This document shows positions 4,301-29,027 of a stretch of 29,788 bases of DNA, one piece after another; the stretch's first letter is position 1; each line of letters starts with the position of its first letter. The notes beneath the pieces were generated by a model. That model was not told the origin of the DNA. It worked only from the letters and a program-made list of their open reading frames with translations, and searched no databases. The stretch lies in the NCBI GenBank assembly GCA_000182565.2, contig KQ257463.1; one strand, 5' to 3'. The stretch comes from Spizellomyces punctatus DAOM BR117 (lineage: Eukaryota). Made by a program: the position numbers and the translations under genes.

Positions 4301-4925
4301 GGTTCTGTTCCTACATTGGTAAGAAAGAGAATTCGGTTCGACGACGCCCATCGCCCATTGATGCACTCTAATCTTTTGCAGATCTCTTGCATAGGTTTAA
4401 ACTTTGGACAGCTGCTACAGCAATTATTCGAGCGTGTCCTTTGGCCTCCGTGAGGGTTCGCAATCAGGTAGGAACGCTGTCTATGCATGCATTTCACAGG
4501 CGAATATTGATTGTCGCAATCCTGTGCCTAGGAATCCACAACACTCCACACAATATGTTGCCATTGTGGGAAGCCTATGCCGAACATACACACTCCAAAT
4601 TGGGCTTGCGAGAGTTGTGGGAAATTACAAAATCCTTGCTCCTTTTGGTACGTTGAAGCAATCCGGTTCTGAGGCCCAAACATACTAACCTAGGACACTT
4701 GCAGCCATAAAACAGCAAAAGGGTTGTATATATGGTGTCAAGGCTGTGCACATGGTGGACACCTAGACTGCTTAAAAGGTGAATTGGACAAGCTGGAACT
4801 CACTCGTCTACGCTGGTATTAACACACTGCGTTTAGAGTGGTTTTCGCATAGTTTAGAGTGCTGCACAGGGTGTGGGCATCAATGTGTATCAAAATTCTT
4901 TGCACTTCCACGCGGTGTATTATAG
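1375..4925 (+). CDS. WDR24: GATOR2/SEACAT subunit WDR24 (Sea2/Rtc1): N-terminal WD40 propeller and C-terminal RING-like zinc domain, multi-exon
   Basis: Exons encode VAVAGRE/VLKIL, NFSINDVKW, TEHTRAVNRINFHPTEPVLLLSASQDGTMRLW, AESVRDVQFSP, FENGTIQ/KWDIR, AHNGLALTVDWHP, IQTIAPVSRVNWRP, DMLEYYAEQANVQMCAT, WCQGCAHGGHLDCLK/EWFSHSLECCTGCGHQC. Stop TAG at 4923-4925. The start at 1375 is inferred. Confidence 0.92.
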
Positions 4926-5022
4926 GCAAGATCAATACGTAAGGGATTACTGTACAGTGAAATAATGGGTGTAACGCTAACGCTGACATACGTCGCATGA
5001 TGATCTCCATGACATTATGGAA

Positions 5023-6349
5023 TCAAAAAGATAATGGCTTCTTTGCAGGAGCCCTGCTGATTTCCAACCGTTCGTACCCTTTACAGATCAGTACATTTTT
5101 TAGCCTCTCAAAGTTACGGGGCGCCAACCCCTGAATATCCTTCATGACCACCTTTCGCAATTTGGCCATCCTTAATAACCAGTCCATTTCGCGACCGGAT
5201 GACAGTCTCATCTTGGATGCAACAAAGATTTCTAAGCTTTCACCAGAATGAGGATATGAGCCCTGATTTACCTCGGCCCAACCACCGCTCGACACCTTGG
5301 TTCCACTCATATCAAGTTCGCGAAGACGAGAACAACGAAATAGTAGCGGTCCAATGCAAACATTATCGAACTGAGGACAATCCCTCACGGAAAGTACTTC
5401 GAGAAAGGCCATGTCTCCCAGTGCAACAAATCCGACTTGTGCAATATTGAAACACTCGGTAAGATTCAGGTGTTTGAGGTGTCGAAATAGATGAAGAAAA
5501 ACGCATAGATCGGTGGAATTCAGTCGCTTACATCCGCTGAGGTTCAGCGTTTCGAGCTTTCCGTGGGTGAAGGTCAATCCATTGTTTCGACCCACAATGG
5601 CTAGTGTCTTGGTCAGATTTTCCAATTTATCACATCCGGAAAGGTCCAAGCTTCTCATATTTGGGCAATTACTGATAAGAAGAGCGATGGATGCAGATCC
5701 AAGAAACTTTGCAGGATCCCATGTATGTTGGAGGACTTGCACCGTCTCCACCCATTGCCGCGCTCCCCGCTGTGATCTCGATGGATTTCCCTCCAGTAAA
5801 AGACGTAGAGTTTCCACACGTATCATAGAGCAACAGGCACCCAAACTTGTCAGATCGAGATGCTTCCAGAAGGGCGCCATGCAAGCCGCAAAAGCAAACG
5901 ATGGCCAATACGCATACCAGCCCTTGTTCAGGAGTCGAAATTTGAGGACAGTAGGAAGATCATCCGCATACAACATGATCAATGCCAAGAGTTCGAGAGG
6001 TAAAGGACGGCGGGTCGTTTCTTTGGGCTCCTTGTTGTTCCCGCGAGCCAGCGGGGAGGCGGAGCACAATGGCTCTGCAGTAGTCCCCAATTGTGATTTA
6101 CTGCACAGGATGCGGCCGCGACGTGATGACTTTCGTGATATGAGATCCAACTGGTTCCCGTCCACTGATAACCAGAGACTATGAATACACCAAGCATGTC
6201 ACGTCGGAATATTCGCAAGGTTCAAACTCACCTCCTCCCAGCTCCTTTGTTTGCACGACATTAACAGTAAGAGGTTCCGATTTCGACAGCTTGAGACGAC
6301 GGCGACGACGAGGAGAGCCTATTATTCTATAAATCGTACTGACAAACAT
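5023..6349 (-). CDS. F-box and leucine-rich-repeat (AMN1/FBXL-type) protein
   Basis: F-box motif LPLELLALIMLYADDLPTVLKFRLLNKGW, then Cys-containing LRRs (MRSLDLSGCDKL, LETLNLSGCKRL, LKHLNLTECFNI, LEVLSVRDCPQF, LRELDMSGTKV). Probable first exon 6232-6349 (MFVSTIYR...ELGG) joins in frame through a GTGAGT...TCAG intron at 6165-6231. Confidence 0.8.
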
Positions 6350-6517
6350 GTCTATGCCGAGGAGAAAGGAGCGAGGAAGGATGGTGTTTGAAGAACGCTT
6401 GAAGGCTGCGCACGCGAATACCAATATTTACGTGAAGGTCGCGGGGGTTACACGGAGGTGAATCTCGTGACCTCGCTATTAAAATCCAATAATCACAACT
6501 GCAACCTATTAATAGGC

Positions 6518-6604
6518 ACAAGTTGGTTATTTGAATTATTTACTTATTTGACATCTTTTGAAAAGTGGAAACGAAATTAGAAACTATCTGCATAAAAACA
6601 ATAA
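6518..6604 (+). repeat. Direct repeat copy 1 (87 bp, AT-rich)
   Basis: ACAAGTTGGTTATTTGAATTATTTACTTATTTGACATCTTTTGAAAAGTGGAAACGAAATTAGAAACTATCTGCATAAAAACAATAA matches 9896-9981 with 5 substitutions and 1 indel by manual alignment. Confidence 0.95.
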
Positions 6605-7216
6605 GTCGACTTGCAAGAGGACCTGGTTGACTGGGATAGAGTTCCTTACTTTCGCAGCACATAGCCCCAACAGCTCGGTCACAATATTCTGTTAACTGTC
6701 TCTGCGGCTGAACAAGAACTCTACATAGGACATCTGACGGATATCTCACCATACCAGTCAGTATTTCACAGAAAGAAATTGTAGCGCCGGCCAGATAGCA
6801 GATCCAAGCACTGGATAGTCGCTTCCACAAGTTCTATTTGTACTTGGAAATGCCTTCGAGCGATGTGCGTTGGGAGAACAGACGCCGTACCCCGAGCCCA
6901 AAACATCACACCTAGGAAACCCTCACTCAAATCTATCAGAAACCTGCCTTGCAACCAGAGCGCACCGCACCGGTGAATTGCATGAAAAAGAATAGCATCT
7001 ATTTTAAGCATCCCGTCTATCAAAACCATTAAGTGCGCATGGTTTGACAGGCAAATGCTACTATTAATAGAGATAATGTCACTACTAATACGTTGAGAAT
7101 TTCGACCGACCATTAATGTTATTCAATGCCTCTGACAGCTGCTGCCATAGATAGGCAGCTGCACAGGAGGAGAACCCGATACGTCTTCGGCTGCCATCGC
7201 TTCTTAGCGCATTAAG

Positions 7217-9781
7217 ATGGCCCACATCCATATTCTTGAGCAACAGCACTCAAGTTATGTGAACGAATTTCTCTTAAATACACGCGGAATGCCTCCCTTG
7301 CCAGAGTGCACACCTGACCAAGACCCTCGCAAGGACTTGAACATTCACAGAACCTATCACGAGACATCGACATCGTTCACAACCCAGAGAGAATTCTTGC
7401 AGAACTGGATTGATCAATGTCGTTCATTGGCTAGAGGAGAACCTGCCTTTGTAGCAACGGAGTGCCGGGTTGGCAACGTCGGGAAGGTCAGATTCTTTGG
7501 TGTTTGTGATAAAACCACCCTATTGGCGTTGGGATACGTCTGTGAGCTGATTTTGACGGATCCGAAAGGGGAGGCTGCCGTCAGAACCTACTTTACCAAT
7601 TATGGGACGGTGCTGAAGCGACATATGATGGCAATGGGAAAATCCAGCAAACGCAATGACACCCGCAGTGCCGGCTATTTTGGGGAAGGGGTCAAGGTGG
7701 CTATTAACCGACTAACTGCCGAGGGTGCCCGCGTGCGATATTTCACTGGATGGAATCTGTGGACCTTTGAGTACGACCAGGAAGATATTTTACAACTCAG
7801 GTTCCAACACCTTTCCAGCCCACAGGCCACTACCGCAATAGTTGATCTGCTGAACGATTCCGGAGTACGCTTTCCTCTACGGCGAAACTTCACGCTTCGG
7901 CCCATTGACACCGCCGACTATCTATTCCTGCATCGAGCCGCATACCCGAACATCCAAACCAATATTCTAAGGACTACGGACATCGAAGTGATTGTTGATG
8001 TTCCGGAATTATTCGGCAACTTGTACGTGAAAGACATCAAATGCATCGCAGATACAGACCTCCGCGTGAAAGGCCGTGTGGACGGGAAGAGTGTTGAGTG
8101 GGGATTTGCTGTGAATTATATCGGGCCACAGACGAACTACAATTTGTTAGGGTTGAGTCGGGACCGAAACACTCTGTATCCGGGCAAAATCCTACGCTTT
8201 GTTCCCGGTTTATTCAGTTCACTCGATACACTGATCTCGCCAAGCGATAAGCGCACGTTCGCTGCCTATCTATTAAAGATGTTGATGCAGCAGTCTCAAA
8301 CATCTGGGGGGCTTTCCAACCAACTCCGCAACTCTAATGATAGAAAGGTCGACCAGATCTTTGCAGATTACATCTTTTTTGCCCTCGCATCGTCTGTTGC
8401 CATGCGTCCGCTAGTCGAAGACGATCTTCAGCACTTCTTTCCTTTCTTGAAATACGAGCAGGATGATGCGAAACAGGCAACTTATCTGGGAGCCTACGTC
8501 ATTGAAGTTCCGCAAGATGTGTTCAACATCCTTGAACTCTCCAGATTTTATCAGAAGCTTACCCAATTATGGGACCGGAAGAAAGAGGAGGCAAAACGAC
8601 AGCCTGACTATGACCTTTCGCCGATTGCCGCATTTGCAGATGATTTATGTAAAGCTATCTATTCATTCTTCCAAATCCCTCGTGAGGCCATCGCATTCAA
8701 GGCTTTCCCGATCAATCGCGAAAACCCGAACCAGACCGTTGTCATCGACGTCCCTGTTCCAAATCTTCCTAGCGGCAAGGGATATATCATTGACGGGAAC
8801 TTATTAAATCGACCCGCTGCACACCGAATTCAACGTAAGCAGACTGGGGAGAAATGTGATAGGACTGATTGTATGTGTGTGCAGATGTGCGTTATTGATG
8901 CGTTGAAGGTGCTTCTGTCAAACGGAAACCGTTCCATGCAACGTAAACTGGAGAAAACGATGTTGAGGAGGAGTTTAGAGGGCTTCATGCAAAACTTGCC
9001 CCCCTCTGTTGCGCAAGAAGAGGAAGAGCAGCAGAAGATTGGAAGCGCCTTCAGTAATCCGAGGGAGCAAGAGACGAATCCTGGTGGCACCCCTTTGCGC
9101 TCATCCTCAACAGGCGAAGCGGGCAATCGCCGCCATACGGGTACCAAAACTCAACCTCCACCCGATATTGCGCAGGACACCGGTGATGAAGGCCCTCGTC
9201 TTCCTGTCAAGCCAACTGACTTGGAATCCTTGGCGAATGATATTGTAAGAGACGTCCAAGAATATGCGCGCAATGCCAGCTCTAGTGCCCCAGACTCTAT
9301 CCTCCACGTCGCGAATCCAGTCAAGAAATGGAAACTGGTGACGTGTGACGGATGTCCTTGTTTGAACCTCGTAAAAGTTCACAATCTCTACATCGACGCC
9401 AATACCACTTCCCCACCCGGAGCAGAAATTCTTAACCTTCGTGATGTCTTCTGGGACCTCGTTCTCGCACCTCTGGCAAATCTCTTCAAATATCCGAAAA
9501 CCAAGGTGCACATATTTTGGGAAGGTAAGGGTTTGATAGCGTTCAACAAAGGCGGAATCCTCTACTACAACCTTCGATATTTTGATGTGCTGCACCGGAA
9601 GAGAGTCGAGTCGTATGAGATTCCGGAGGTTTTGATGTGGTGGTTCGTCATATTTGCCCATGAATGCGCACACAATGTAGCATCCGGACATGACAAAGAA
9701 CACGAATGGGCAGAGGAGATTCTGATTCAGAAACATTTATCAGATTTGATGGAGTTATGTACGACGTACAAGAACTATTAA
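7217..9781 (+). CDS. Intronless 854-aa protein: N-terminal GHKL (Bergerat-fold) ATPase-like domain and C-terminal HExxH zincin (WLM/SprT-like) metallopeptidase-like domain
   Basis: Uninterrupted 2565-nt ORF. N-box REFLQNWID (aa 58-66), G1-like TNYG, G2 box MGKSSKRNDTRSAGYFGEGVKVA (GYFGEG at aa 153-158). C-terminus IAFNKGGILYYNLRYF...WWFVIFAHECAHNVASGHDKEH (HECAH at aa 815-819). Internal His/Cys clusters HRIQ...CDRTDCMC and CDGCPC. Confidence 0.82.
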   Translation: MAHIHILEQQHSSYVNEFLLNTRGMPPLPECTPDQDPRKDLNIHRTYHETSTSFTTQREFLQNWIDQCRSLARGEPAFVATECRVGNVGKVRFFGVCDKTTLLALGYVCELILTDPKGEAAVRTYFTNYGTVLKRHMMAMGKSSKRNDTRSAGYFGEGVKVAINRLTAEGARVRYFTGWNLWTFEYDQEDILQLRFQHLSSPQATTAIVDLLNDSGVRFPLRRNFTLRPIDTADYLFLHRAAYPNIQTNILRTTDIEVIVDVPELFGNLYVKDIKCIADTDLRVKGRVDGKSVEWGFAVNYIGPQTNYNLLGLSRDRNTLYPGKILRFVPGLFSSLDTLISPSDKRTFAAYLLKMLMQQSQTSGGLSNQLRNSNDRKVDQIFADYIFFALASSVAMRPLVEDDLQHFFPFLKYEQDDAKQATYLGAYVIEVPQDVFNILELSRFYQKLTQLWDRKKEEAKRQPDYDLSPIAAFADDLCKAIYSFFQIPREAIAFKAFPINRENPNQTVVIDVPVPNLPSGKGYIIDGNLLNRPAAHRIQRKQTGEKCDRTDCMCVQMCVIDALKVLLSNGNRSMQRKLEKTMLRRSLEGFMQNLPPSVAQEEEEQQKIGSAFSNPREQETNPGGTPLRSSSTGEAGNRRHTGTKTQPPPDIAQDTGDEGPRLPVKPTDLESLANDIVRDVQEYARNASSSAPDSILHVANPVKKWKLVTCDGCPCLNLVKVHNLYIDANTTSPPGAEILNLRDVFWDLVLAPLANLFKYPKTKVHIFWEGKGLIAFNKGGILYYNLRYFDVLHRKRVESYEIPEVLMWWFVIFAHECAHNVASGHDKEHEWAEEILIQKHLSDLMELCTTYKNY

Positions 9782-9793
9782 CAAGAACTATTA
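9768..9793 (+). repeat. 13-bp perfect tandem duplication overlapping the stop codon
   Basis: ACAAGAACTATTA twice (9768-9780, 9781-9793), followed by a partial ACTATT. Confidence 0.9.
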
Positions 9794-9895
9794 ACTATTT
9801 TGCGTTGGTGGTAGGCAATACCATTAGAGCGGGCGTATCAGATTGTATCAGGGATTTGTAGTGTGCTAATGTATATAGGTTATCACCCCAATCGT

Positions 9896-9981
9896 ACAAG
9901 TTGGTTATTTGAATTATTGATTTATTTGACATCTTTTGAAAAGTGAAACGGAATTAGAAACTGTCTGCATGAAAACAATAA
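9896..9981 (+). repeat. Direct repeat copy 2 (86 bp)
   Basis: ACAAGTTGGTTATTTGAATTATTGATTTATTTGACATCTTTTGAAAAGTGAAACGGAATTAGAAACTGTCTGCATGAAAACAATAA, about 93% identical to 6518-6604 and in the same orientation. Confidence 0.95.
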
Positions 9982-10720
9982 TGCAAATGCATTCTGCTAG
10001 TTGGAAATAGGTTTGTTAGGTAGCCTGTCAATCGCGTACGGATTTCCTTCATCAAATGGTATGCTAAATATCATGTCGAAATCGAGCATTTTATTTAGGC
10101 ATTGACTTGGGATCACCATCTTTTGGCAAGAACCCTTTTGGCATCATAGTTTATCTGACATGGTGCATCATGATAATCCTACTCCTCAGCTATCGTGATG
10201 TCCATCTTTCAGAATCCCCTGCTATTAACTGTAATATCTGCCTACTTTAGACGTTACCATGAAGGATGGTTAGAATATTTGTTCAGAATGGATCCACAGA
10301 TATCAACCTTGCTGTAGCAATGATATAGCATAATAATGTGCCATCTCTGACACTTGCAAAATACGGTAATGGCCTCAATCCCACATTAGAACTGCCATTG
10401 TAGCGGTTAAGCAAGTTGGAGTGCGTAATAGTACCAGCAATTGTCGGCTGCGTTTCTGGCCAATTAGCCAAATCCCTTGTTGCGCTTTAAGGACGAGAAT
10501 GAACATACTAATCGACGTGAGTCAAGTAGAACTTTCGATCGTTACAAAGAATCATATTCACCTCCTGAACCCAACTGAATCCGAGTACTTGCAAGGAAAA
10601 TAACAAATGCAATGTTGCAATTTGACCATTAAGGATATCAATACGACATATCGCCCGCCTCTCATACATGCTCCTAGTTTCATATATACACCATCTAATG
10701 CAATCGCTATCGCCGTGCTA

Positions 10721-12555: not shown

Positions 12556-12820
12556 GATCGCAGGCACGCCAGATTGATAATGGTTGACAGGTTTCACCAG
12601 ATGGTGCGCAGCATTGATCGACATTACGTAATCAAAGCGTTGCATTTTCGAAAAACGCCCTGGTGCAAATAGCTGACGACAATTGGTCCGGTTTGAATAG
12701 ATGCATACTCAAATGAGTGACTACATTTACGGCTTCAGAATGTGCTTGTCAGCCAACCTAAGTACAATGTGATGATACAGCTATATAACACGTCCTATCG
12801 TCCTACGCAACCCGCTGTGA

Positions 12821-15292
12821 TCAGGAGGCGACGATCGAACAGACTGTTGCAGAATGCTCATGCGAGCCACATGTTTCGCATGTATGAAGGAAGCGGCACT
12901 GACTGCCGTTTCTACAGTATCCTTTGTTATTATTCCAATAGTGGCATGTTCTTCCGTTTTGCGGAACAGCATTGATGGCAGGCACGCTTTGCTTAAACTT
13001 GCGTGGTGTGGTTTCTTGCAATTGAATTTTGAACTTCTTGTTCCGACCTTCGCGTTCGCCAGTTTCCCCTTCATATCGGCCACGCTTGCGATGACTACCT
13101 ACGTCCATTGTCGCACTGTCAGACGTATGCTGCCGCGAACGGGGTGCGGGACTTCGTCGCCCGGCTGCAAAGCTCTCTTCCGGGTACGCGATCGGTGGAG
13201 GGACTGACCGATTCACATAACGGGTTACAACTACCGGACAATCTAAGCTGGGATGGGCACCGCCGCAATTTATGCATCGGTGAACTCGTTCTGAGTAATG
13301 ATGGGGTTAGTGTTATTGTCCGAGTTTATTTAGGCATCACATTCAACCATGATGTGTTGAGACAATGATCATTACACGTACTGCAGGTATCAAAGCCACA
13401 AAGTCCACTCGAGTTCCAGTTTTGACAAAAGTCCGTATACTTCCTGCCCGGCATTTCTGGCTTGACCTTGTCTTTATGAGGACACTCGAACATTCCATGG
13501 TCTCCATGACAAATCATACAGACATTCAAACGAGGGCACCGGCTTAGGTCGCAATGACTTTTGTTCCAGTGAAGACAGATTTGTGCCTTCCTGTCACACT
13601 CCACAAAGGTATGGGCAGACGAGCCGCAATAAGCGCATTGATGCAAATGGTAACAATTGCGATGAATGCAGTTGCCACGATTCCAATGTAGGCATACACG
13701 TTGTCGTTTTCCAGATGCGAGCAAATAGGGATTTGCACTAGTCCTCTCGGGACTACGGGACTTTTCCGTACGCCTGTTGTCGTTGCCTCGTGTTGGTGTT
13801 ACAGCGCGTGATTCTGACAAGGCCTGCTTCGAAGAATCAGTATCTCTCTCTATAATCGAAATTACGACAGGCCTCTCGTCAGTACGGCTTTCACCCTGCG
13901 GCTCAGAGCCTAATCTTCTAGGAGTCTGGGATATGCTTTCGAAAAGCTTTTGCACAGCATCTTCAAGAGGTGCCTCTGGTGCCGTCTCAATTTCCGAAAT
14001 CGGGGACCATCTGCTCTCAACAGCAGCTCCCTTGTTTTTCAAGATGGGTAACATCGCGCGATTAGAAGCATTTCCCTCAGTCTGCATCGCAATTTCATTA
14101 CTAGACAAAGGGGGTTTGCTTGTATCAAGCACATTTGAGTTGAGGGTGGACATCAACTGGTTTGGAATGCCTGTATGTTTTTCAAGGCTGGATATCCCAA
14201 GGGGTTGAACTCCCGCATTTTGACCAATTTGGACATATTTCAATCGAGCCAGTAGGTCAGCACGCTTTGTTGCGGCTTCAGCTTTCATTTCACCCAACTG
14301 TTGCTTCGACATTGCCAATTTTAGGGAAAGCTGATTCCTTGCTCCGTCTACACGCTGCTTGTGGGCTTCTTTTTCGACTAGTTCTTTTTGCAAGTTCATA
14401 ATGCGCGCTCGTAGAGAATCACATTCGTTAGCCAATCTCGCAATTTCAGCTTGATGCTGATAGGAGGCATTCATGTCTTCAATGAACTGATTTTCGACTA
14501 GATCCACTTTCTCCGAGTGCTCAAGTATCTCCAACTGTAATTGATAAAGCTCTCGCTGTTTAATTTCATCGTTCGCATTATGGATAGCGGCAGCGGTGCG
14601 ACCAAGCAGCCCGGATCCCTCTGGTCTGCAGGTGACCGGTTCTTCATTGTTACGTAAGGACACTCGTCCATTATCCACAGCTGCAAACAGTTTATCGCCT
14701 GCCTGTACAGTTGAACTTGCTGGTACAGACTCCAGTACACTTTGCATTTCACTTATGGGAGATCTCCCAACCGGCTTCGCGGTGGCGAAACGTGCCCATA
14801 TGTTCAGCAAGGCAGGAAAGGATGCAGCTGCGGTCTGAATATTTGTGGGCACCATATCAGACGCACCATTAGATCCTCCACTTGGTGAACCCATTCCGAT
14901 ATCATCTACTTCTGCCAAGCCGTTCAGGGGAGTTCTTATTCCGGCGGTAACGGGCTCATCGGCATGTACTCCCAGCATTTCGTATGACAAGGAGCGTGGG
15001 CTTGGTTCACAGTTGATGTCGCCTATACGAGATGTTGGGGGGCTTTCTGGTTCTTTTTTGGGTGTTACCCAATATGTGCCATTGCTCACCGTCTCATAGG
15101 TCGGTAGACGGTGCACTGCAGGAGTTGAGACTGGACGCTCCATAACAAAATGGATGGGTATCTGTAAGTCCGGAGGAACACAAGGTCGAAGGCTCAAGAA
15201 TTAACAGTCCAGACTTGCAAAATCAAAACACCTTCAAAAGCCAAATGCTACCTGATCACCGCAGATGGTTTCATCGCAAAAAGTTGTGCCAT
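12821..15292 (-). CDS. Coiled-coil protein with four tandem CCCH+CCHC zinc-finger modules (putative nucleic-acid binding)
   Basis: The large ORF 13326-15197 splices (intron 13291-13381) to a last exon 12821-13290. Modules: CLHWNRGNCIHRNCYHLHQCAYCGSSAHTFVEC, CLHWNKSHCDLSRCPRLNVCMICHGDHGMFEC, CQNWNSSGLCGFDTCKRVHRCINCGGAHPSLDC, CHYWNNNKGYCRNGSQCRFLHTCETCGSHEHSATVC. Heptad-rich central segment. The short first exon from ATG 15292 is tentative. Confidence 0.82.
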
Positions 15293-23000: not shown

Positions 23001-23583
23001 TACAGAGCATCTACCTAAACCTCATTTTTTCTTATAGAACGTAATGATGGGTCTGCTAGTCCAAGAGATAGAAGAAAACTTTGAAGCCAAAGGATTTCTT
23101 ATAGGTGAGGATGTGACAGCTTTTGTTAAACGTCCAGTNNNNNNNNNNNNNNNNNNNNNNNNNNNNNNNNNNNNNNNNNNNNNNNNNNNNNNNNNNNNNN
23201 NNNNNNNNNNNNNNNNNNNNNNNNNNNNNNNNNNNNNNNNNNNNNNNNNNNNNNNNNNNNNNNNNNNNNNNNNNNNNNNNNNNNNNNNNNNNNNNNNNNN
23301 NNNNNNNNNNNNNNNNNNNNNNNNNNNNNNNNNNNNNNNNNNNNNNNNNNNNNNNNNNNNNNNNNNNNNNNNNNNNNNNNNNNNNNNNNNNNNNNNNNNN
23401 NNNNNNNNNNNNNNNTCCTGTTGTTGAGTACTACAAGAGAAAGAATCGCTGCATTGAGGTATTCCAAGCAATAGTTCTATCGTCTTTTATCGTACTTAAT
23501 TTGATTCATTCTAGATTTCATCCATACCACCAGTGGATGAAGTGTATGCGGAAGCTAGGAAACATTTTGAGGAAGAAATGTAG
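20020..23583 (+). CDS. AK5-like adenylate/UMP-CMP kinase: N-terminal dimerization-docking (RIIa/Dpy-30-like) domain plus three kinase domains, many introns, spans an assembly gap
   Basis: DATTYFERNHINQILE/SIVTGLTFTRPDDPLAYIEDC (D/D domain). Three copies of VFxLGGPGxGKGTQC...H(L/I)SxGDLLR.E...GxxVPM...GFLI; LLxRGxTSGRxDDNxETIxKRF is visible in domains 1 and 2. Stop TAG at 23581-23583. Confidence 0.9.
23139..23415. other. Assembly gap (277 N)
   Basis: Run of N inside the third kinase domain. Confidence 1.
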
Positions 23584-23762
23584 GGAGGGTAGACGATGGG
23601 GTAAAATATACCAGCTTTTGGATGTCGCTGCTTTGGTCATCATTGAAAGCCACGTGATTATGATGATAAATATATACCTGGGAGATGATAAGCTACTGGC
23701 GCAGTCTAGCGAGAAAGACGAACAAGCATCCAAATTGTCCACAGAAACGGTCAACGAACGAG

Positions 23763-26700
23763 ATGGCAAGATACCGCTCTCGCTCACGTTCCCGTTCTCA
23801 GGACTCCAGAGACAAGGACGCCTCACCAGAGTATAAGCGACGAAAGCATGACGACGACGACCATGGCTCTCGTCGCAAGGAGCACAGGGACCGTTCAAGC
23901 AGAAAACATCGGTCAGAAAGGGACAGAGACAGCCGGCGGGATCGTAGCAAAGATCGAAGCAAAGACAAATCACGCAGTGAGAGATCTCGGCATTCCAAGT
24001 CCAAAGACGAGGATCGTGATGGCCATAAGGAGAAAGATCACCGCAGCGACAGAGAGCGGTCTGGGTCGGTGACACACCCTACGGTGGAATCCAGCACAAA
24101 TGGCCAGACACGGACAGAACACACGGTAAGAACTGATGGGAAGGAGAGCCCAAAGCGCCTCAGCGATGCTATGGACATCGATACCGTGGACCACCGGCAG
24201 CAAAATAATGGTCAGATGCATACAACAGGGCAAAATGTCGCCGTGAAGACCGGGTCAGCTGTCAAGGTATGTACAGTTTGACATTACTCACTCCTTGGAC
24301 AGTGGTATTTATGTGGCTTGCACGGCAGACCAACGAGTCAGGGAAAGACGAGAAACAGGTGCAGGTATGTGTTTCGATTGTGATTCATGTTCTCTCTCAC
24401 GGGCCTCCATATCATGCGTAACCCCATCATTTCAGGAGCAACCTGCTACACCAGTAACTGATGCAGAAGAGAAGTTGCGACAGCGACGAGAGCGAATTGA
24501 ACAGTGGCGACGGGAAAGAGCAGCAAAGGAAGCCGCAGAAAAAGGTGCCGAGGAGACCTCGACGGCGGAGGCGAGCCCGGTCTCGGTAAAGAAGGGAGAC
24601 GGAGTAATTCCGGAGAAGGATGGCAATATAACTACCAAGTCGCGTGGTGCAGTCGCAACAGGTAAGATGACCTAAATGCAGCTCAATATGACCGGCAACC
24701 AACTGAGCTTTACTATTTTGGTCAGGCGGGCCAGCACCCACAACCACATCACCAAATCATGTGGTCCGGAAGAGAGAATCATCTATAGCCTTTGGTGCTT
24801 CTGGATCAAAGCCAGGTCCCAAGTCGGTTGCAAAGTTCGGGTTTGGTAAATCGGTGAAATCCGGAATATCTATCAAACCGACCGTTATAGCCCCCAAGCC
24901 ATTAGCGATAAAGCCAAAGTCGGCCTTTAGCTTTGAAGCGGATGATGACGAGGCAGCAGTGTCTAGATTACCCAGTAAAAAGCTGCGGATGTTAGGCACA
25001 GACGATATGGAGGTGGATGCTGGCAAGGCCACCGAGAACGATGATGATCAGGATACTCTGGAAGCGTTTATGGAGGATGTAAACACTGAAGTTCAGAAGC
25101 TGAATGAGGATGACCAATTGGCGCAACAACAAAACGAACCTATGGACGTAAATGAAGCCAACGATCAAGAAGATGATCAAGAGGCCATGAGTGACGACCC
25201 TGATGATTTGATTGCAGCTGCTGCTAAAAAGCTGGCGGCGAAGCGCAAGGATTTGGCACCAGTCGATCATAGTACTCAACATTACGAGCCGTTCCGAAAA
25301 GATTTCTATATTGAACCACCTGAACTTGGGGATATGACTAATGAGGAAGTAGAACTAAAGCGAGCAGAACTAGATGGTATCAAGATTCGTGGAGTCAGGT
25401 GCCCCAAGCCAATTGAGAAGTGGACGCAGTTTGGTCTTCCAGGAGGAGTTGGTGAAGTGATAAGGAGGATTTTGAAGTATGACAGGCCCACACCAATTCA
25501 AGCGCAAGCTATACCGGCGGTTATGAGTGGGAGGGATGTCATTGGCATCGCCAAAACGGGATCGGGAAAGGTATGTATGTCTTGTCTACGTGTTGCATTG
25601 TTCATCTCATTAATGAACGACATGGTTGTAGACGATCGCTTTTCTGCTTCCAATGTTCCGACATATCAAAGATCAACGTCCTTTGGAAGCTCAAGAAGGA
25701 CCAATCGCGCTTATCATGACCCCAACACGAGAGCTTGCAGTGCAAATCCACAAAGAATGCAAACATTTTGCTCGGGCACTGAATCTCCGTGCAGTTTGTT
25801 GTTATGGCGGTTCACCGATTAAAGACCAGATCGCGGAACTGAAAAGGGGAGCTGAAATTATCATCTGTACACCAGGAAGAATGATTGATTTGCTGTGCGC
25901 GAACAGCGGCAGAGTTACAAATCTAAAACGTGTTACCTACCTTGTCCTTGATGAAGCGGACCGTATGTTTGACATGGGATTCGAGCCTCAGGTCATGCGG
26001 ATCGTTAACAACGTGCGCCCCGATAGGCAGACTATCCTGTTTTCAGCTACATTTCCGCGAAAAATGGAAGCGCTTGCTCGAAAGATTCTGCAAAAGCCAC
26101 TGGAAATTACCGTCGGCGGCAGGAGTGTTGTGGCGTCCGATGTCACTCAAATTGTCGAGGTGTTACAGGACGATAATGCTAAATTCTTACGGTTGCTCGA
26201 CATTCTTGGTCGCACATTCAATGAAGATCAGGATGCGAAAGTGTTGATTTTCACTGATCGGCAAGAAGCTGCGGACAACCTTCTCACCCTACTTCTTCGA
26301 AAGGGATATCCATGTCAGTCGCTTCACGGCGGAAAAGATCAAGCTGATAGGGATTCCACTATTTCCGATTTCAAAACAGGAAATACAAATATCTTGATTG
26401 CAACATCGGTGGCTGCTCGAGGTTTGGATGTCAAACAGCTGAAAGTCGTCATCAATTACGAATGTCCCAACCATATGGAAGATTATGTTCATCGTGTTGG
26501 ACGCACAGGCCGTGCGGGGAACAAGGGTACAGCGTACACATTCATTACGCCTGATCAGGAGAAGTTTGCGGTGGATATTGTAAAGGCGTTGACTATGAGC
26601 GAGGTGCAAGTGCCAGAGGATTTGCAAAAGCTTGCAGACTCATTCATTCAGAAGGTGAAGACAGGCGCGGCGCAGTATTCTTCGTCTGGGTTTGGCGGGA

Positions 26701-27436
26701 AAGGTTTGGAAAAATTGGAAAAGGAGCGGGACATGGTGAAGAAGCTTCAAAAGAAAGCTCATGGTGCTGCTTTCGATGACGAAGATGATGAGGAAGATGA
26801 AGACGTCAAGTTCGAGGCAAAGGCAGTGCCAGCGGGGGCAGCTCCTCCACCAGTCGCTGGGGATAGTACAGCCACGACACCAGCTGCCAATGGAGGCGGT
26901 TTGGCATCGGCGGCGGTCAAAGCTGCACAAGAGGCAGCCGCAAAAGTTAATGCCGCTGTGGGTGCGTCCGGAGCAGCCAGAGCTCGCGACATTATTGCGG
27001 AAATCAATGCAAAATTCAAGGATGCGGCTGCAGGAGTCGGCGGCGAGGACAAGAAGCAAGCATCAGAGGCTGCATATGCATATGAGATTGAAATCAACGA
27101 CTATCCGCAAAAGGCACGTTGGCGCGTTACAAACAAGGAGCAAATTTCACAAATCACCGAGCTCAGTGGTGCAGCCATTACAACAAGAGGCACCTACTTT
27201 CCTCCCGGCAAGCAACCTGGACTTGGAGAACGCAAGTTGTACTTGGTAAGTCAATTCTGTTGCATCCTCAAACACTGCCGATATGAATCTGACAAGATAC
27301 TCTATAGTTTATTGAAGGTGATACGCAGATCGTCATTGATAAAGCAAAGGCTGAAATCAAACGTATCATTACGGAGGCTACCATCTCCAGTATGGAGAGC
27401 GAGGCTGCGGGTGGTGCTCGCTACTCAGTTCTGTGA
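23763..27436 (+). CDS. PRP5: Pre-mRNA-processing DEAD-box RNA helicase Prp5/DDX46
   Basis: RS/RD-rich N-terminus, [86 protein letters not shown], and KH-like C-terminus [13 protein letters not shown]...RYSVL. Stop at 27434-27436. Confidence 0.97.
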
Positions 27437-28236
27437 TGTAACCTGCTCGACGCGGTGTGACGTCGCATGTAGATAAGTTTAGATTGCACCTGCATATATG
27501 GAAAACACGATGTTTTGTGTGTACTTTATTACTACAGAAGGAAATATCGTCTAGTTAATCAATTGTCTACGACTGCCGCAGGAAAGGTTCTGTAGACAGC
27601 GACAACCATGCAGGTTCAGTTGACCTAATCAGAGTCTGTAGATTGGAGAGACTCCATAAGAGGGGGCAAACCCACGCCAGCTGTTGAAGAAAATGCGGCC
27701 ATTCATGGAATTCCGGAAGAAGACCCGCATGTTACCATGGTCCTCCATGGCCACGAGCTGCCCCCGAGCTACGCGGACATTGACAAGCCACATGGTCCGG
27801 ATGGACAAGCCTACCACTCCCTCTCGCGACGTGCTAGATACGTGCGCCGTTTGTACCTTGCACTTCATGGAAGTCTCCCGCCCTCTGTGCCGACCATATA
27901 TATAGCTCCCGATGACGTTGTTTGTGTTGTTACCCTTGTTTGTTTGTGACTGGGTTTTCCAAAACTTCCCACGGTTTCTCTCACATCGCCCGTCGACCGT
28001 GTACTTCAGTGATGGACAGATCAATCGCGAGACACGCACCCAGTCTCAACCGTCGATATTAGGCCCGGCTGCTGATTTCCTAATCAGCCAGTGGTGCACG
28101 TCCGCATCGCCAAATGGGGTAAGGGAGCCCCACCGCGCGTAATTGGGAAGGATTTCGATTGCTCCTTCCCTGTGGTCGGACCAGCCGTGGGCGATGACCC
28201 AGTGCCATGTCTATCCTGCGTTCCGCCAGCACGATT

Positions 28237-28824
28237 CTAATTCACGTCGCTCGTGCTCATAGCTGCCTGCGTTCTGTTGTTGTTTATCTGCTCGGACGGC
28301 CGGTGTGAGCGGAGAACTTCCACCACACCACGATGGCAAACCATCCAAGGAGTCCCCCCATCGCGAGCAGCATCAAAACGCACCTCCTTGCTGACGCCGC
28401 CGTCGGTGCCGTGGATGCGTAGAAGGCCACCCCGACTTGTCGGCATACCTGTTGTCGCAGCAGGTAGACACGCGCGCCAACTTGCCGTCACCCTCTTATG
28501 CCCTGCTTGGAAGCAAGCAGAATCGCAGCAGGATTGACCGAGTGTATTCCGGTCGCTAGTGGCTGTCGGGTGCCGATGGTGGGCTTGCAATGATGCGTTG
28601 GTAAATGCCTGCCCTGGCGAACTAGTCTTCCACAGGAGCTCTTACTTCCTTTTTGGCCAAATCATCGCACTCATGGCGCTGATGGCTGACGCGTATTCTT
28701 TGCCTGTTTTGTAGTCGTCGAAGCGGATCTGGCTCCAATGGTGTTCCACACTCTGGGGAGGAGCGCTGAGGCAGTCAATGAGATTTATTGCAACCGGCGT
28801 TTGGTAGCGCAAGACTTGCGGCAT
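28237..28824 (-). mobile_element. Probable decayed Ty1/copia LTR-retrotransposon gag remnant
   Basis: Two same-frame ORFs (28642-28824 and 28237-28590) are split by a stop. EHHWSQIRFDDYKTGKEYASAISAM...K*ELLWKT...LQAHHR resembles my recollection of the copia gag (UBN2-like) segment W..LR..D(F/Y)K....Y.SA......LLEKT. No LTRs or RT recognised. Confidence 0.45.
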
Positions 28825-28829
28825 CGCTT

Positions 28830-29000
28830 GGAGTCACAGCCGCGAGTGGAGTTACAAGCGGACGTGTAGCTGCATTACGTGAAACTAAAGCAGCGCGTGG
28901 AGTCACAGCGGCGCGAGGAGTTACAACTGGGCGGCGTGTTGCTGCACCTCGTGGAACTACAGCAGCGCGCGGAGTCACAGCCGAGGGAGGAGCTGCAGGT
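28830..29000 (-). repeat. Degenerate codon-phased tandem repeat (69 nt + 72 nt + partial, built of ~18-nt subunits)
   Basis: GGAGTCACAGC starts at 28830, 28899 and 28971. The minus strand reads AAVTPR/PVVTPR/AAVVPR repeats. Confidence 0.85.
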
Positions 29001-29027
29001 GTGCGTGCAGCTGCACCGCGTCCCTGA

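Follow-up and report, generated by a model that had tools for sequence, protein, structure and literature searches.

A Spizellomyces punctatus protein of a widespread eukaryotic family predicted to join a GHKL-type ATPase and a Wss1-like zinc protease module in one chain

A 29,788-nucleotide stretch of the chytrid genome Spizellomyces punctatus DAOM BR117 (assembly GCA_000182565.2, contig KQ257463.1; the window) carries a gene for an 854-residue protein in which an N-terminal GHKL-type ATPase body and a C-terminal Wss1-like protease module are predicted to lie in a single chain. On the basis of a structural model, residues (aa) ~40-361 can confidently be assigned to the GHKL/GHL ATPases with their transducer, and modelling supports the reading of aa ~700-854 as a Wss1/WLM-like minimal zincin with intact catalytic residues. 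The gene is real and is transcribed in the sense direction, both active sites are under purifying selection, and the family, judged from its sequences, looks old and vertically inherited across most major eukaryotic lineages. What distinguishes it, as far as sequences and models indicate, is the pairing of a phage-related Hsp90-like motor with a live Wss1-like protease, the catalytic activity of the latter being predicted. The family has no name and no Pfam model and is uncharacterised; we found no literature on it and none joining GHKL with WLM, and the literature on MPN635 is unrelated.

The AlphaFold2 model of the N-terminal body (aa 25-600), made with 41 aligned relatives, had a predicted local distance difference test score (pLDDT) of 89 and a predicted template modelling score (pTM) of 0.85. 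A Foldseek search of the PDB with this model returned 80 matches at E ≤ 1e-3, topped by full-length Hsp90, TRAP1 and GRP94 structures (E 8e-9 to 1e-6, probability 1.00). These Hsp90-type alignments ran over 610-740 columns at a template modelling (TM) score of only 0.22-0.32, with a root-mean-square deviation (rmsd) of 10-17 Å over the whole body. VIA, a comparison independent of Foldseek, gave Z scores of 8.1-10.3 to T6 topoisomerase II, ParE, GRP94, TRAP1, MORC2, MutL, SMCHD1 and topoisomerase VI over model residues 16-337, scores of 9.9-10.0 to GRP94 and TRAP1 across model residues 15-569, and a score of 5.3 to sacsin SR1. The catalytic Glu, Asn, Asp and GxxGxG that characterise the Hsp90 family (Hsp90, TRAP1, GRP94, HtpG) and sacsin are all present, and the protein differs from Hsp90, which has no protease, in its C-terminal protease-like module.

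Conservation among the relatives follows these motifs closely. The ExxxNxxD of the N-box is kept almost throughout (E59 in 39/40, N63 in 38/40, D66 in 38/39), and by analogy with E33, N37 and D40 of Hsp90, the residues from which the roles are taken (PMC9880540), E59 is presumed to be the general base and N63 the Mg ligand. In motif III (GxxGxG, reading G153-Y-F-G156-E-G158) the first and last glycines are found in 41/41 relatives and G156 in 40/41; K160 is found in 41/41 and T177 in 37/41. The pLDDT of the model dips at aa ~135-155, as is typical for a mobile lid. Two arginines of a loop in the transducer, R317 and R315, are candidates for the basic residue that senses the gamma-phosphate, with R380 of Hsp90 and R474 of sacsin as their analogues (PMC9880540). 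Near the start of the body, an LNxxxxY segment (L41 in 35/37, N42 in 36/36, Y47 in 37/37) is a candidate for the strand-exchange "strap" through which GHL ATPases dimerise. Taken across the family, the conservation of the ATPase motifs fits a working ATPase.

The C-terminal module was modelled with 44 aligned sequences (pLDDT 86, pTM 0.80). In a structure search of 48,161 chains, Saccharomyces cerevisiae Wss1 ranked first (Z 8.2, rmsd 3.0 Å over 106 residues) and Schizosaccharomyces pombe Wss1 second (Z 7.2), with a tool for which best-match Z scores of 7-8 are common as background. When 481 Foldseek candidates were rescored, four Wss1 entries took ranks 1-4 (5xbn and 5xbv at Z 8.2, 5jig at 7.4, 5ln5 at 7.2), and below them came ERAP2 and the TRAP1 C-terminal domain (6.5 each), AQ_1354/YbeY (6.1/5.9), SPRTN (6.0) and selecase (6.0). 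The alignments to Wss1 structures covered 95-106 residues at rmsd 2.6-3.2 Å and 13-15% identity. H815, E816, H819, H825 and H829 are invariant in the 44-sequence alignment, as are N777 and N785 in the strands before the active-site helix; among full-length relatives the corresponding counts are 33/33 for H815, 30/33 for E816, 31/34 for N777 and 32/33 for N785. The presumed zinc ligands are H815, H819 and H825, with E816 as the presumed general base. The HExxHx5H pattern is kept in 133 of 139 C-modules; in the six exceptions the Glu is lost (P0014, HGLAH; P0127, HVLAH), the spacing is changed (P0033, P0050) or the module is cut or divergent (P0059, P0152). This spacing is of the WLM and metzincin type, and the profile places the third His in register with the HExxHxxGxxH of adamalysin. 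In the stored relatives the C-module ends at a median of 6 residues from the C terminus.

Pfam matches to the module were weak. WLM was the commonest sub-threshold match (25/44 relatives, best E 1.1e-4), with Reprolysin_5 (11/44) and YgjP-like (3/44) behind it. The window protein's own C-module had no WLM match at E ≤ 1; given that WLM stayed below the gathering threshold, we call the module WLM-like and do not file it as a member of the Pfam family. On the whole protein the sole Pfam match was Reprolysin_5 (E 0.32), on the HExxH helix, and phmmer and profile searches of the PDB with the C-module gave matches to the HExxH helix only. The original prediction, made from the DNA letters, had read the gene as a GHKL ATPase fused to an HExxH metallopeptidase with a WLM/Wss1-type zinc site. 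Every motif it quoted is present at the residues it gave, with E59 and E816 correctly numbered, and the Hsp90-type matches of the body and the top rank of Wss1 for the C-module agree with the two folds that it had proposed.

The family is large and its full architecture recurs. A phmmer search of 1.84 billion cluster representatives gave 507 matches at E ≤ 1e-3, 103 at ≤ 1e-10 and 17 at ≤ 1e-30, among them full-length relatives of 750-960 aa; P0003 is 41% identical over aa 31-846, and the chytrid protein P0004 is 44% identical. A word-indexed homologue search returned the protein itself as its sole match. We searched local profiles of the three regions (ATPase, middle domain and C-module) against a set of 157 stored proteins that includes that of the window; many of its short entries are fragments from short contigs. 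All three regions were found in 47 proteins, the C-module only in 85, the ATPase only in 10, ATPase and middle domain in 8, middle domain and C-module in 6, and ATPase and C-module in 1. The full architecture, or at least the ATPase body where an entry is a fragment, occurs in at least 13 named eukaryotes from very distant lineages; the named sources are Quaeritorhiza, Thoreauomyces, Sanchytrium, Planoprotostelium (two genes), Balamuthia, Tribonema (two genes), Chromera, Mesostigma, Palpitomonas, Pharyngomonas, Ancoracysta and "Eukaryota sp. TZLM1-RC". We take Quaeritorhiza and Thoreauomyces to be chytrids, Planoprotostelium and Balamuthia to be Amoebozoa, Pharyngomonas to belong to Discoba and Ancoracysta to Provora, four of the lineages having been checked. 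The ESM Atlas adds an Ascomycota-dominated cluster of 815-aa proteins.

Some relatives carry accessory domains. In P0030 (1,121 aa) the family ATPase body is followed by a DnaJ domain (E 1.6e-17) and a weak SAP-like match, with no protease module; the combination is sacsin-like, since sacsin also carries a J domain. P0059 (1,022 aa) has TRAFD1/XAF1-type zinc fingers after its truncated or divergent C-module. These domains hint at protein quality control in the case of P0030 and at signalling in that of P0059. Among the other entries, P0007 (Planoprotostelium PRP77152.1) has Peptidase_M16_C/PqqF-like domains ahead of the family body, possibly through a merged gene model, and P0023 (Balamuthia KAL6076901.1), labelled by its source as "Mg2+ and Co2+ transporter CorB", looks like a mis-annotated family member. 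A metagenome scan gave three loci, two of which (L005 and L006) look fungal from their DUF7580 and peroxidase neighbours. At 5608-6930 (+) these two have a 440-aa frame with the family N-box and lid and no protease module in that frame, which could represent either a stand-alone form in eukaryotes or a single exon of a gene with introns.

Two resemblances that the original prediction had pointed out, that of the tail to fungal DUF3684 sacsin-like proteins and that of the lid to phage stand-alone GHKL proteins, were borne out by profile comparison. The C-module recurs at the extreme C terminus of fungal SACS (PF25794) + DUF3684 (PF12449) proteins of ~1,600-1,850 aa, where it lies outside both Pfam models. 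The phmmer matches fell at residues ~1,600-1,710 of P0071 (Auricularia subglabra EJD52006.1), P0105 and others, and hhalign aligned the module (aa 675-853) with the SACS+DUF3684 tail at 99.7% and E 1.3e-25. Both types of protein have an N-terminal GHKL-type ATPase with a near-invariant Asn at the presumed motif II position, and both end in an IAFN...FFN...W...HExAHNxxxxHxxxHE module, whereas the window protein is half the size and lacks the ~1,000-residue TPR-like core. Pfam found neither SACS nor DUF3684 in the window protein or in five full-length relatives. A quick maximum-likelihood tree took 121 of the 139 C-modules, leaving out the near-duplicates P0153-P0158 and rows under 110 profile positions; in it the architecture labels were strongly clustered, the compact type of the window protein requiring 9 changes vs a shuffled mean of 35.6, with 0/500 shuffles as low, and making up the deeper, more divergent branches. 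Since the tree has no root and many of its branches are long, we drew no direction of transfer from it. Wss1 has a reported regulatory cysteine switch (PMC4559962), and an upstream Cys was considered as its equivalent in the compact family; the candidate was dropped, C710 being present in 3/28 rows. The upstream Cys of the SACS+DUF3684 proteins (C1556 in the YCD motif of P0071) is invariant in 11/11.

A recent preprint on Tiamat (10.64898/2026.09.30.754977) describes an active ATPase of the SACS/Tiamat clade, predicted to form a dimeric clamp, with an internal Wss1-like fold that lacks HExxH and is reportedly without catalytic activity. The C-terminal effector of Tiamat can be exchanged, peptidases being among the alternatives, and the same preprint notes from InterPro a metallopeptidase that ends ATPase-DUF3684 fusions. 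The design of a GHL ATPase with a swappable C-terminal effector is therefore already in print, and we found no mention of the compact family in the parts of that preprint that we consulted.

The ATPase body has relatives of its own among phages. The phrog_6077 hidden Markov model matched the N-terminal body at E 4.6e-12 and 40/41 relatives (best E 2e-17), the match covering positions 47-127 of the 366 in the profile only. The family profile aligned by hhalign with gp176 of Escherichia phage 4MG (YP_008857389.1) at 99.2% and E 3e-19 over aa 38-443. This 382-aa "hypothetical protein", which lies among small hypothetical genes, was the sole phage match by tblastn (E 6e-4). Its homology to the window protein spans the Bergerat fold, the transducer and the helical region, and it shares the N-box, the GK[ST][ST]K...G.FGEG.KV lid and the loop of the transducer, which it keeps as DRDRN. 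The phage proteins are 360-450 aa long, compared with 854 aa for the window protein, and gp176 lacks the HExxH, the Cys cluster and the protease module. The best fold matches in BFVD were uncharacterised phage proteins of 363-437 aa (E 7e-13 to 3e-11), with rIIA proteins ranking below them, and the ESM Atlas neighbours were phage and Bacillota clusters in which a minority of members carry MPN635_N/HATPase_c_3, a result that we treat as a lead only. The sequence comparisons suggest that the ATPase body was likely exchanged anciently between phages and eukaryotes, in one direction or the other.

We considered that the protein could be a conflict or immune effector, in which the ATPase body would recognise a ligand of viral or non-self origin, a role proposed for Tiamat as well, and the protease would then be switched on, for example to cut proteins of the host or the virus or to set off a proteolytic cascade. 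The phage homology of the body, the phage and Bacillota neighbours in the ESM Atlas (again as a lead), the C-module held in common with the SACS+DUF3684 "Tiamat-like" proteins, the zinc fingers of P0059 and the two copies in Tribonema and Planoprotostelium would all be in keeping with such a role, as would the peptidase-bearing Tiamat-like proteins and the Wss1-like fold within Tiamat (10.64898/2026.09.30.754977). We nevertheless think it unlikely, given that so deep and wide a eukaryotic spread, with both active sites strongly conserved, would be expected of a housekeeping gene more than of an immune gene that evolves fast, that the phage relatives have no protease and no known function, and that nothing in the neighbouring genes, which encode an LRR protein and a DEAD-box helicase, clearly suggests defence. 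The window protein had no match among the PADLOC models, with two stray weak matches in 41 members, and the Tiamat model of that library may not detect eukaryotic relatives.

Several results weigh against our reading of the protein as an ATPase joined to a protease. Because no Pfam GHKL model (HATPase_c, HATPase_c_3, HSP90 or SACS) matched the protein at E ≤ 10 or the 41 relatives at E ≤ 1, membership of the GHKL group rests on fold and motifs; phmmer and profile searches of the PDB with the N-terminal body gave zero sequence matches. Motif II reads N-x-x-T-x-L (N128 in 40/41, T131 in 38/41), so that N128 occupies the place of the adenine-binding Asp of the GHKL DxGxG, an equivalence assigned by motif order only, and with an Asn there nucleotide binding could be altered. 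The sacsin residue at the position of Hsp90 D79 is called "conserved", not invariant (PMC9880540). The ATPase parts aligned by hhalign with the SACS+DUF3684 N termini at the N-box only (21 columns, E 0.0026, probability 11%), and therefore the protease module is shared and the motor not demonstrably so. For the C-module, the top Foldseek rows were the minimal zincins selecase, abylysin, jannalysin and Wss1 at a weak best E of 0.054, and the Z of Wss1 stands just modestly above the background of the search tool, which makes the fold evidence, taken by itself, moderate. YbeY-type RNases are also among its fold matches. Communication between ATPase and protease, finally, is a proposal by analogy.

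The last of the fold matches bears on a second alternative, namely that the C-module is not proteolytic and acts as a YbeY-type metal-dependent nuclease or as a client-binding or dimerisation domain, which would make the protein simply an Hsp90/sacsin-like chaperone. Against the C-module model the YbeY/AQ_1354 metal-dependent hydrolases reach Z 5.7-6.1 and Hsp90 C-terminal domains 5.2-6.5, two relatives (P0014 and P0127) have lost the Glu, and the Wss1-like fold of Tiamat is reported to be catalytically dead (10.64898/2026.09.30.754977). We judge this reading quite improbable, given the retention of the general-base Glu in full-length relatives and of HExxHx5H across C-modules described above, the lead of ~2 Z units that Wss1 holds over YbeY (rmsd 3.0 Å vs 3.9 Å), and the fact that the weak Pfam matches are to peptidase families. 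To our knowledge YbeY lacks the HExxH Glu, which we also count against it.

For a proteolytic C-module we put forward the following scheme. ATP binding would close the lid, the N-terminal domains would dimerise via the conserved strap so that the clamp captures a client, and the tethered protease would then cut the captured client or itself. ATP-driven N-terminal dimerisation is established for the GHL proteins Hsp90, MutL, MORC and topoisomerase II. As with sacsin and Wss1, the favoured client would be a protein that is misfolded or bound to nucleic acid. To this reading, in which a dimeric clamp closed by ATP carries an active Wss1-like protease on a flexible tether and acts on a housekeeping client, we give about an even chance; dimerisation, coupling and the nature of the client would follow by analogy with the proteins just named. 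A complex prediction of aa 25-600 with aa 700-854, in which alignments were not used, scored 0.01 against a mark of 0.34 and is evidence neither way. A bolder form, which we think rather doubtful, would make the family an ATP-dependent protease complete in itself, with a GHKL (Hsp90/MutL-type) clamp as its base, in which dimerisation traps the client and the live Wss1-like zincin degrades it, as the active counterpart of the dead Tiamat fold and with an ATPase body exchanged with phages deep in evolution. The ATP-dependent proteases that we know of (Lon, FtsH, Clp, HslUV and the proteasome) all use an AAA+ ring. Wss1/WLM (PF08325) and SPRTN, which share the minimal zincin fold and the HExxHx5H zinc site with the window module, act in a DNA-dependent manner as proteases that clear DNA-protein crosslinks. 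Wss1 recruits its ATPase, the AAA+ protein Cdc48, in trans (PMC4559962), whereas the protease-like module of the window protein is fused to an ATPase in one chain, and Pfam showed none of the Wss1-type SHP, VIM, SIM or ubiquitin-like parts in it.

Between the motor and the protease module lie a helical region, an alpha/beta domain and a linker. Over model residues 440-566 the alpha/beta domain resembled selecase, Wss1 and AQ_1354 at VIA Z scores of 5.0-5.5, and the full-length GRP94/TRAP1 alignments run across these residues as well with their C-terminal part, so that the assignment of the domain is uncertain between a degenerate zincin-like fold and an Hsp90-C-terminal-like domain. Its fold recalls the catalytically dead "metalloprotease-like fold" that follows the ATPase core of Tiamat (10.64898/2026.09.30.754977). 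The support for a degenerate copy of the C-module consists of these Z scores and ESM Atlas rows to phage proteins at TM ~0.5-0.6, and hhalign detected no sequence similarity between the two domains (E ~0.2). A cluster of one His and three Cys within the domain (H536 in 32/33; C547, C552 and C554 in 34/34 each) is a probable structural zinc site, judged from its conservation. The acidic linker that follows is poorly conserved and varies in length across relatives, and in the C-module model pLDDT falls below 50 for aa 690-711. The features of the gene are collected in Table 1.

Table 1. Features of the gene and its product, in window coordinates
Feature	Position	Strand	Basis
Whole gene; 854-aa single open reading frame, stop codon included	7217..9781	+	homologues and transcription
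First 24 residues, left out of the public gene model	7217..7288	+	public model starts at M25
GHL ATPase module (Bergerat fold and transducer), aa ~40-361	7334..8299	+	model, VIA, Foldseek
LNxxxxY segment, aa 41-47	7337..7357	+	conservation; beta strand at model residues 14-20
Motif I / N-box REFLQNWID, aa 58-66	7388..7414	+	motif, conservation
Motif II position YFTNYGTVL	7589..7615	+	motif order only
ATP lid and motif III, GKSSK...AGYFGEGVKVAINRL, aa 141-166	7637..7714	+	motif, conservation; region matched by phrog_6077
LSRDRN loop in transducer	8153..8170	+	R317 41/41, R315 37/41
Helical region, aa ~362-463	8300..8605	+	secondary structure; part of the phage-homologous body
Alpha/beta domain, aa ~464-594	8606..8998	+	fold comparisons
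H536/C547/C552/C554 cluster (probable structural zinc site)	8822..8878	+	conservation
Acidic Pro/Ser-rich disordered linker, aa ~595-699	8999..9313	+	pI 4.7; 58% P/S/T/G/Q/N/E
Wss1-like minimal zincin module, aa ~700-854	9314..9778	+	model, structure search, hhalign
IAFN..G.L.YN.RYF strands before the active-site helix	9533..9583	+	conservation of N777 and N785
Zinc site HECAHNVASGHDKEHEWAEE	9659..9718	+	HExxHx5H; H815, H819, H825 presumed ligands, E816 presumed base
HECAHNVASGHDKEHE, aa 815-830	9659-9706	+	terminal HExxH motif of the original prediction
3' untranslated region	9782..10154	+	RNA depth 43.8 in 9798-10154, 0.19 past 10155

The open reading frame (ORF) starts at the first ATG past the upstream in-frame stop, in a stop-to-stop frame that runs from 7208. 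The public gene model in protein collections is 830 aa long and begins at Met25; since phmmer aligns P0004, P0005 and P0008, which are the closest relatives, beginning at residue 1-4, Met1 is the likelier true start. Transcription was read from one RNA run of the same species label, which consists of 3'-biased 3' tags. RNA depth on the plus strand was 67 over the last 340 nucleotides (nt) of the ORF and 44 over the next ~370 nt, while that on the opposite strand was ≤ 0.4 at the gene's 3' end, and the minus-strand neighbours showed the mirror pattern at their own 3' ends. This pile-up of plus-strand RNA at the 3' end indicates that the gene is transcribed in the sense direction. A low plus-strand depth (1.7-3.6) was also seen at 6585-7298, upstream of and over the start codon, where it exceeds that inside the ORF; this signal might mark where the transcript begins or come from a distinct RNA upstream.

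The original prediction had set an intronless ORF against spliced neighbours and had raised the possibility that the gene was acquired horizontally or by retroposition. The frame is unbroken and the two neighbours examined are each interrupted by a canonical short intron; the 3'-tag RNA shows no splice joints for any gene, and the absence of introns in the target is therefore read from the uninterrupted frame. A recent acquisition by this genome, whether from a phage, a giant virus or a bacterium or by retroposition, would be consistent with that contrast and with the phage homologues of the ATPase body, and we regard it as very improbable. The closest relatives are eukaryotic and full length, as P0003 and P0004 show, and the architecture is spread over distant eukaryotic lineages. 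The composition is native: GC content is 0.485 overall and 0.535 at third codon positions, and codon usage correlates with that of the neighbouring genes at r 0.62, within the 0.19-0.70 that these genes span among themselves. A-runs in the downstream 1 kb reach a length of 4 at most, and L004, a distant relative from a metagenome contig, also reads as a single open frame (764 aa). Because the composition is native, poly-A remnants are absent and that relative is also unbroken, recent transfer or retroposition is unsupported; a neighbouring gene, moreover, has an unbroken exon of 1.9 kb. Single-peptide pattern scans, which are limited by their patterns and are not evidence of absence, gave no confirmed N-body relative among 20 stretches in prokaryotic genomes and no confirmed C-module among 16 stretches in viral contigs; the N-body scan of viral contigs gave two weak loci. 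The original prediction had also named, as an outcome that would count against it, a vertically inherited orthologue in a family already characterised. Inheritance does look vertical, and the family is not a characterised one.

Of the neighbouring genes, the DEAD-box helicase gene at 24707-27476 (+) encodes a C-terminal KH_12 domain and has an intron of ~61 nt (GTATGT...TAG, ~25571-25631) that splits the Walker A motif (P-loop) between GSGK and T. The minus-strand gene at 12821-15200 has an intron (GT...ACTAAC...CAG, ~13345-13291) in which ACTAAC is the branch site; its 1.9-kb exon encodes a 624-aa frame without a Pfam match, and minus-strand RNA gives a 3'-end signal at 12654-13010. The LRR-protein gene at 4800-6198 (-), with LRR_4/LRR_6/LRR_1 matches, has the strongest RNA 3'-end signal of the stretch examined (depth 107 in 4800-5156), and loose poly-T read ends at 4899 mark its poly-A site. 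Elsewhere in the window, 277 N at 23139-23415 represent an assembly gap or a masked stretch and explain the apparent GC dip at 23001-24000, and a tandem repeat at 28821-29021 (72-nt unit, 2.9 copies, 77% matches) lies in the GC-rich window end.

In summary, our analysis describes a conserved family that is spread across eukaryotes, with two intact active sites, in which a predicted GHKL motor and a Wss1-type protease share one chain. If the ATPase and the protease are coupled, the family would represent a new design of ATP-regulated protease, with a GHKL motor in place of an AAA+ one. The function of the sacsin/Tiamat/NO VEIN group is a long-standing puzzle and is linked to disease, and the family connects this group with Wss1/SPRTN biology and with many uncharacterised phage GHKL proteins. 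At 854 aa and encoded by one uninterrupted frame, the S. punctatus protein is tractable for biochemistry and structure determination, whereas sacsin (4,579 aa) is not.

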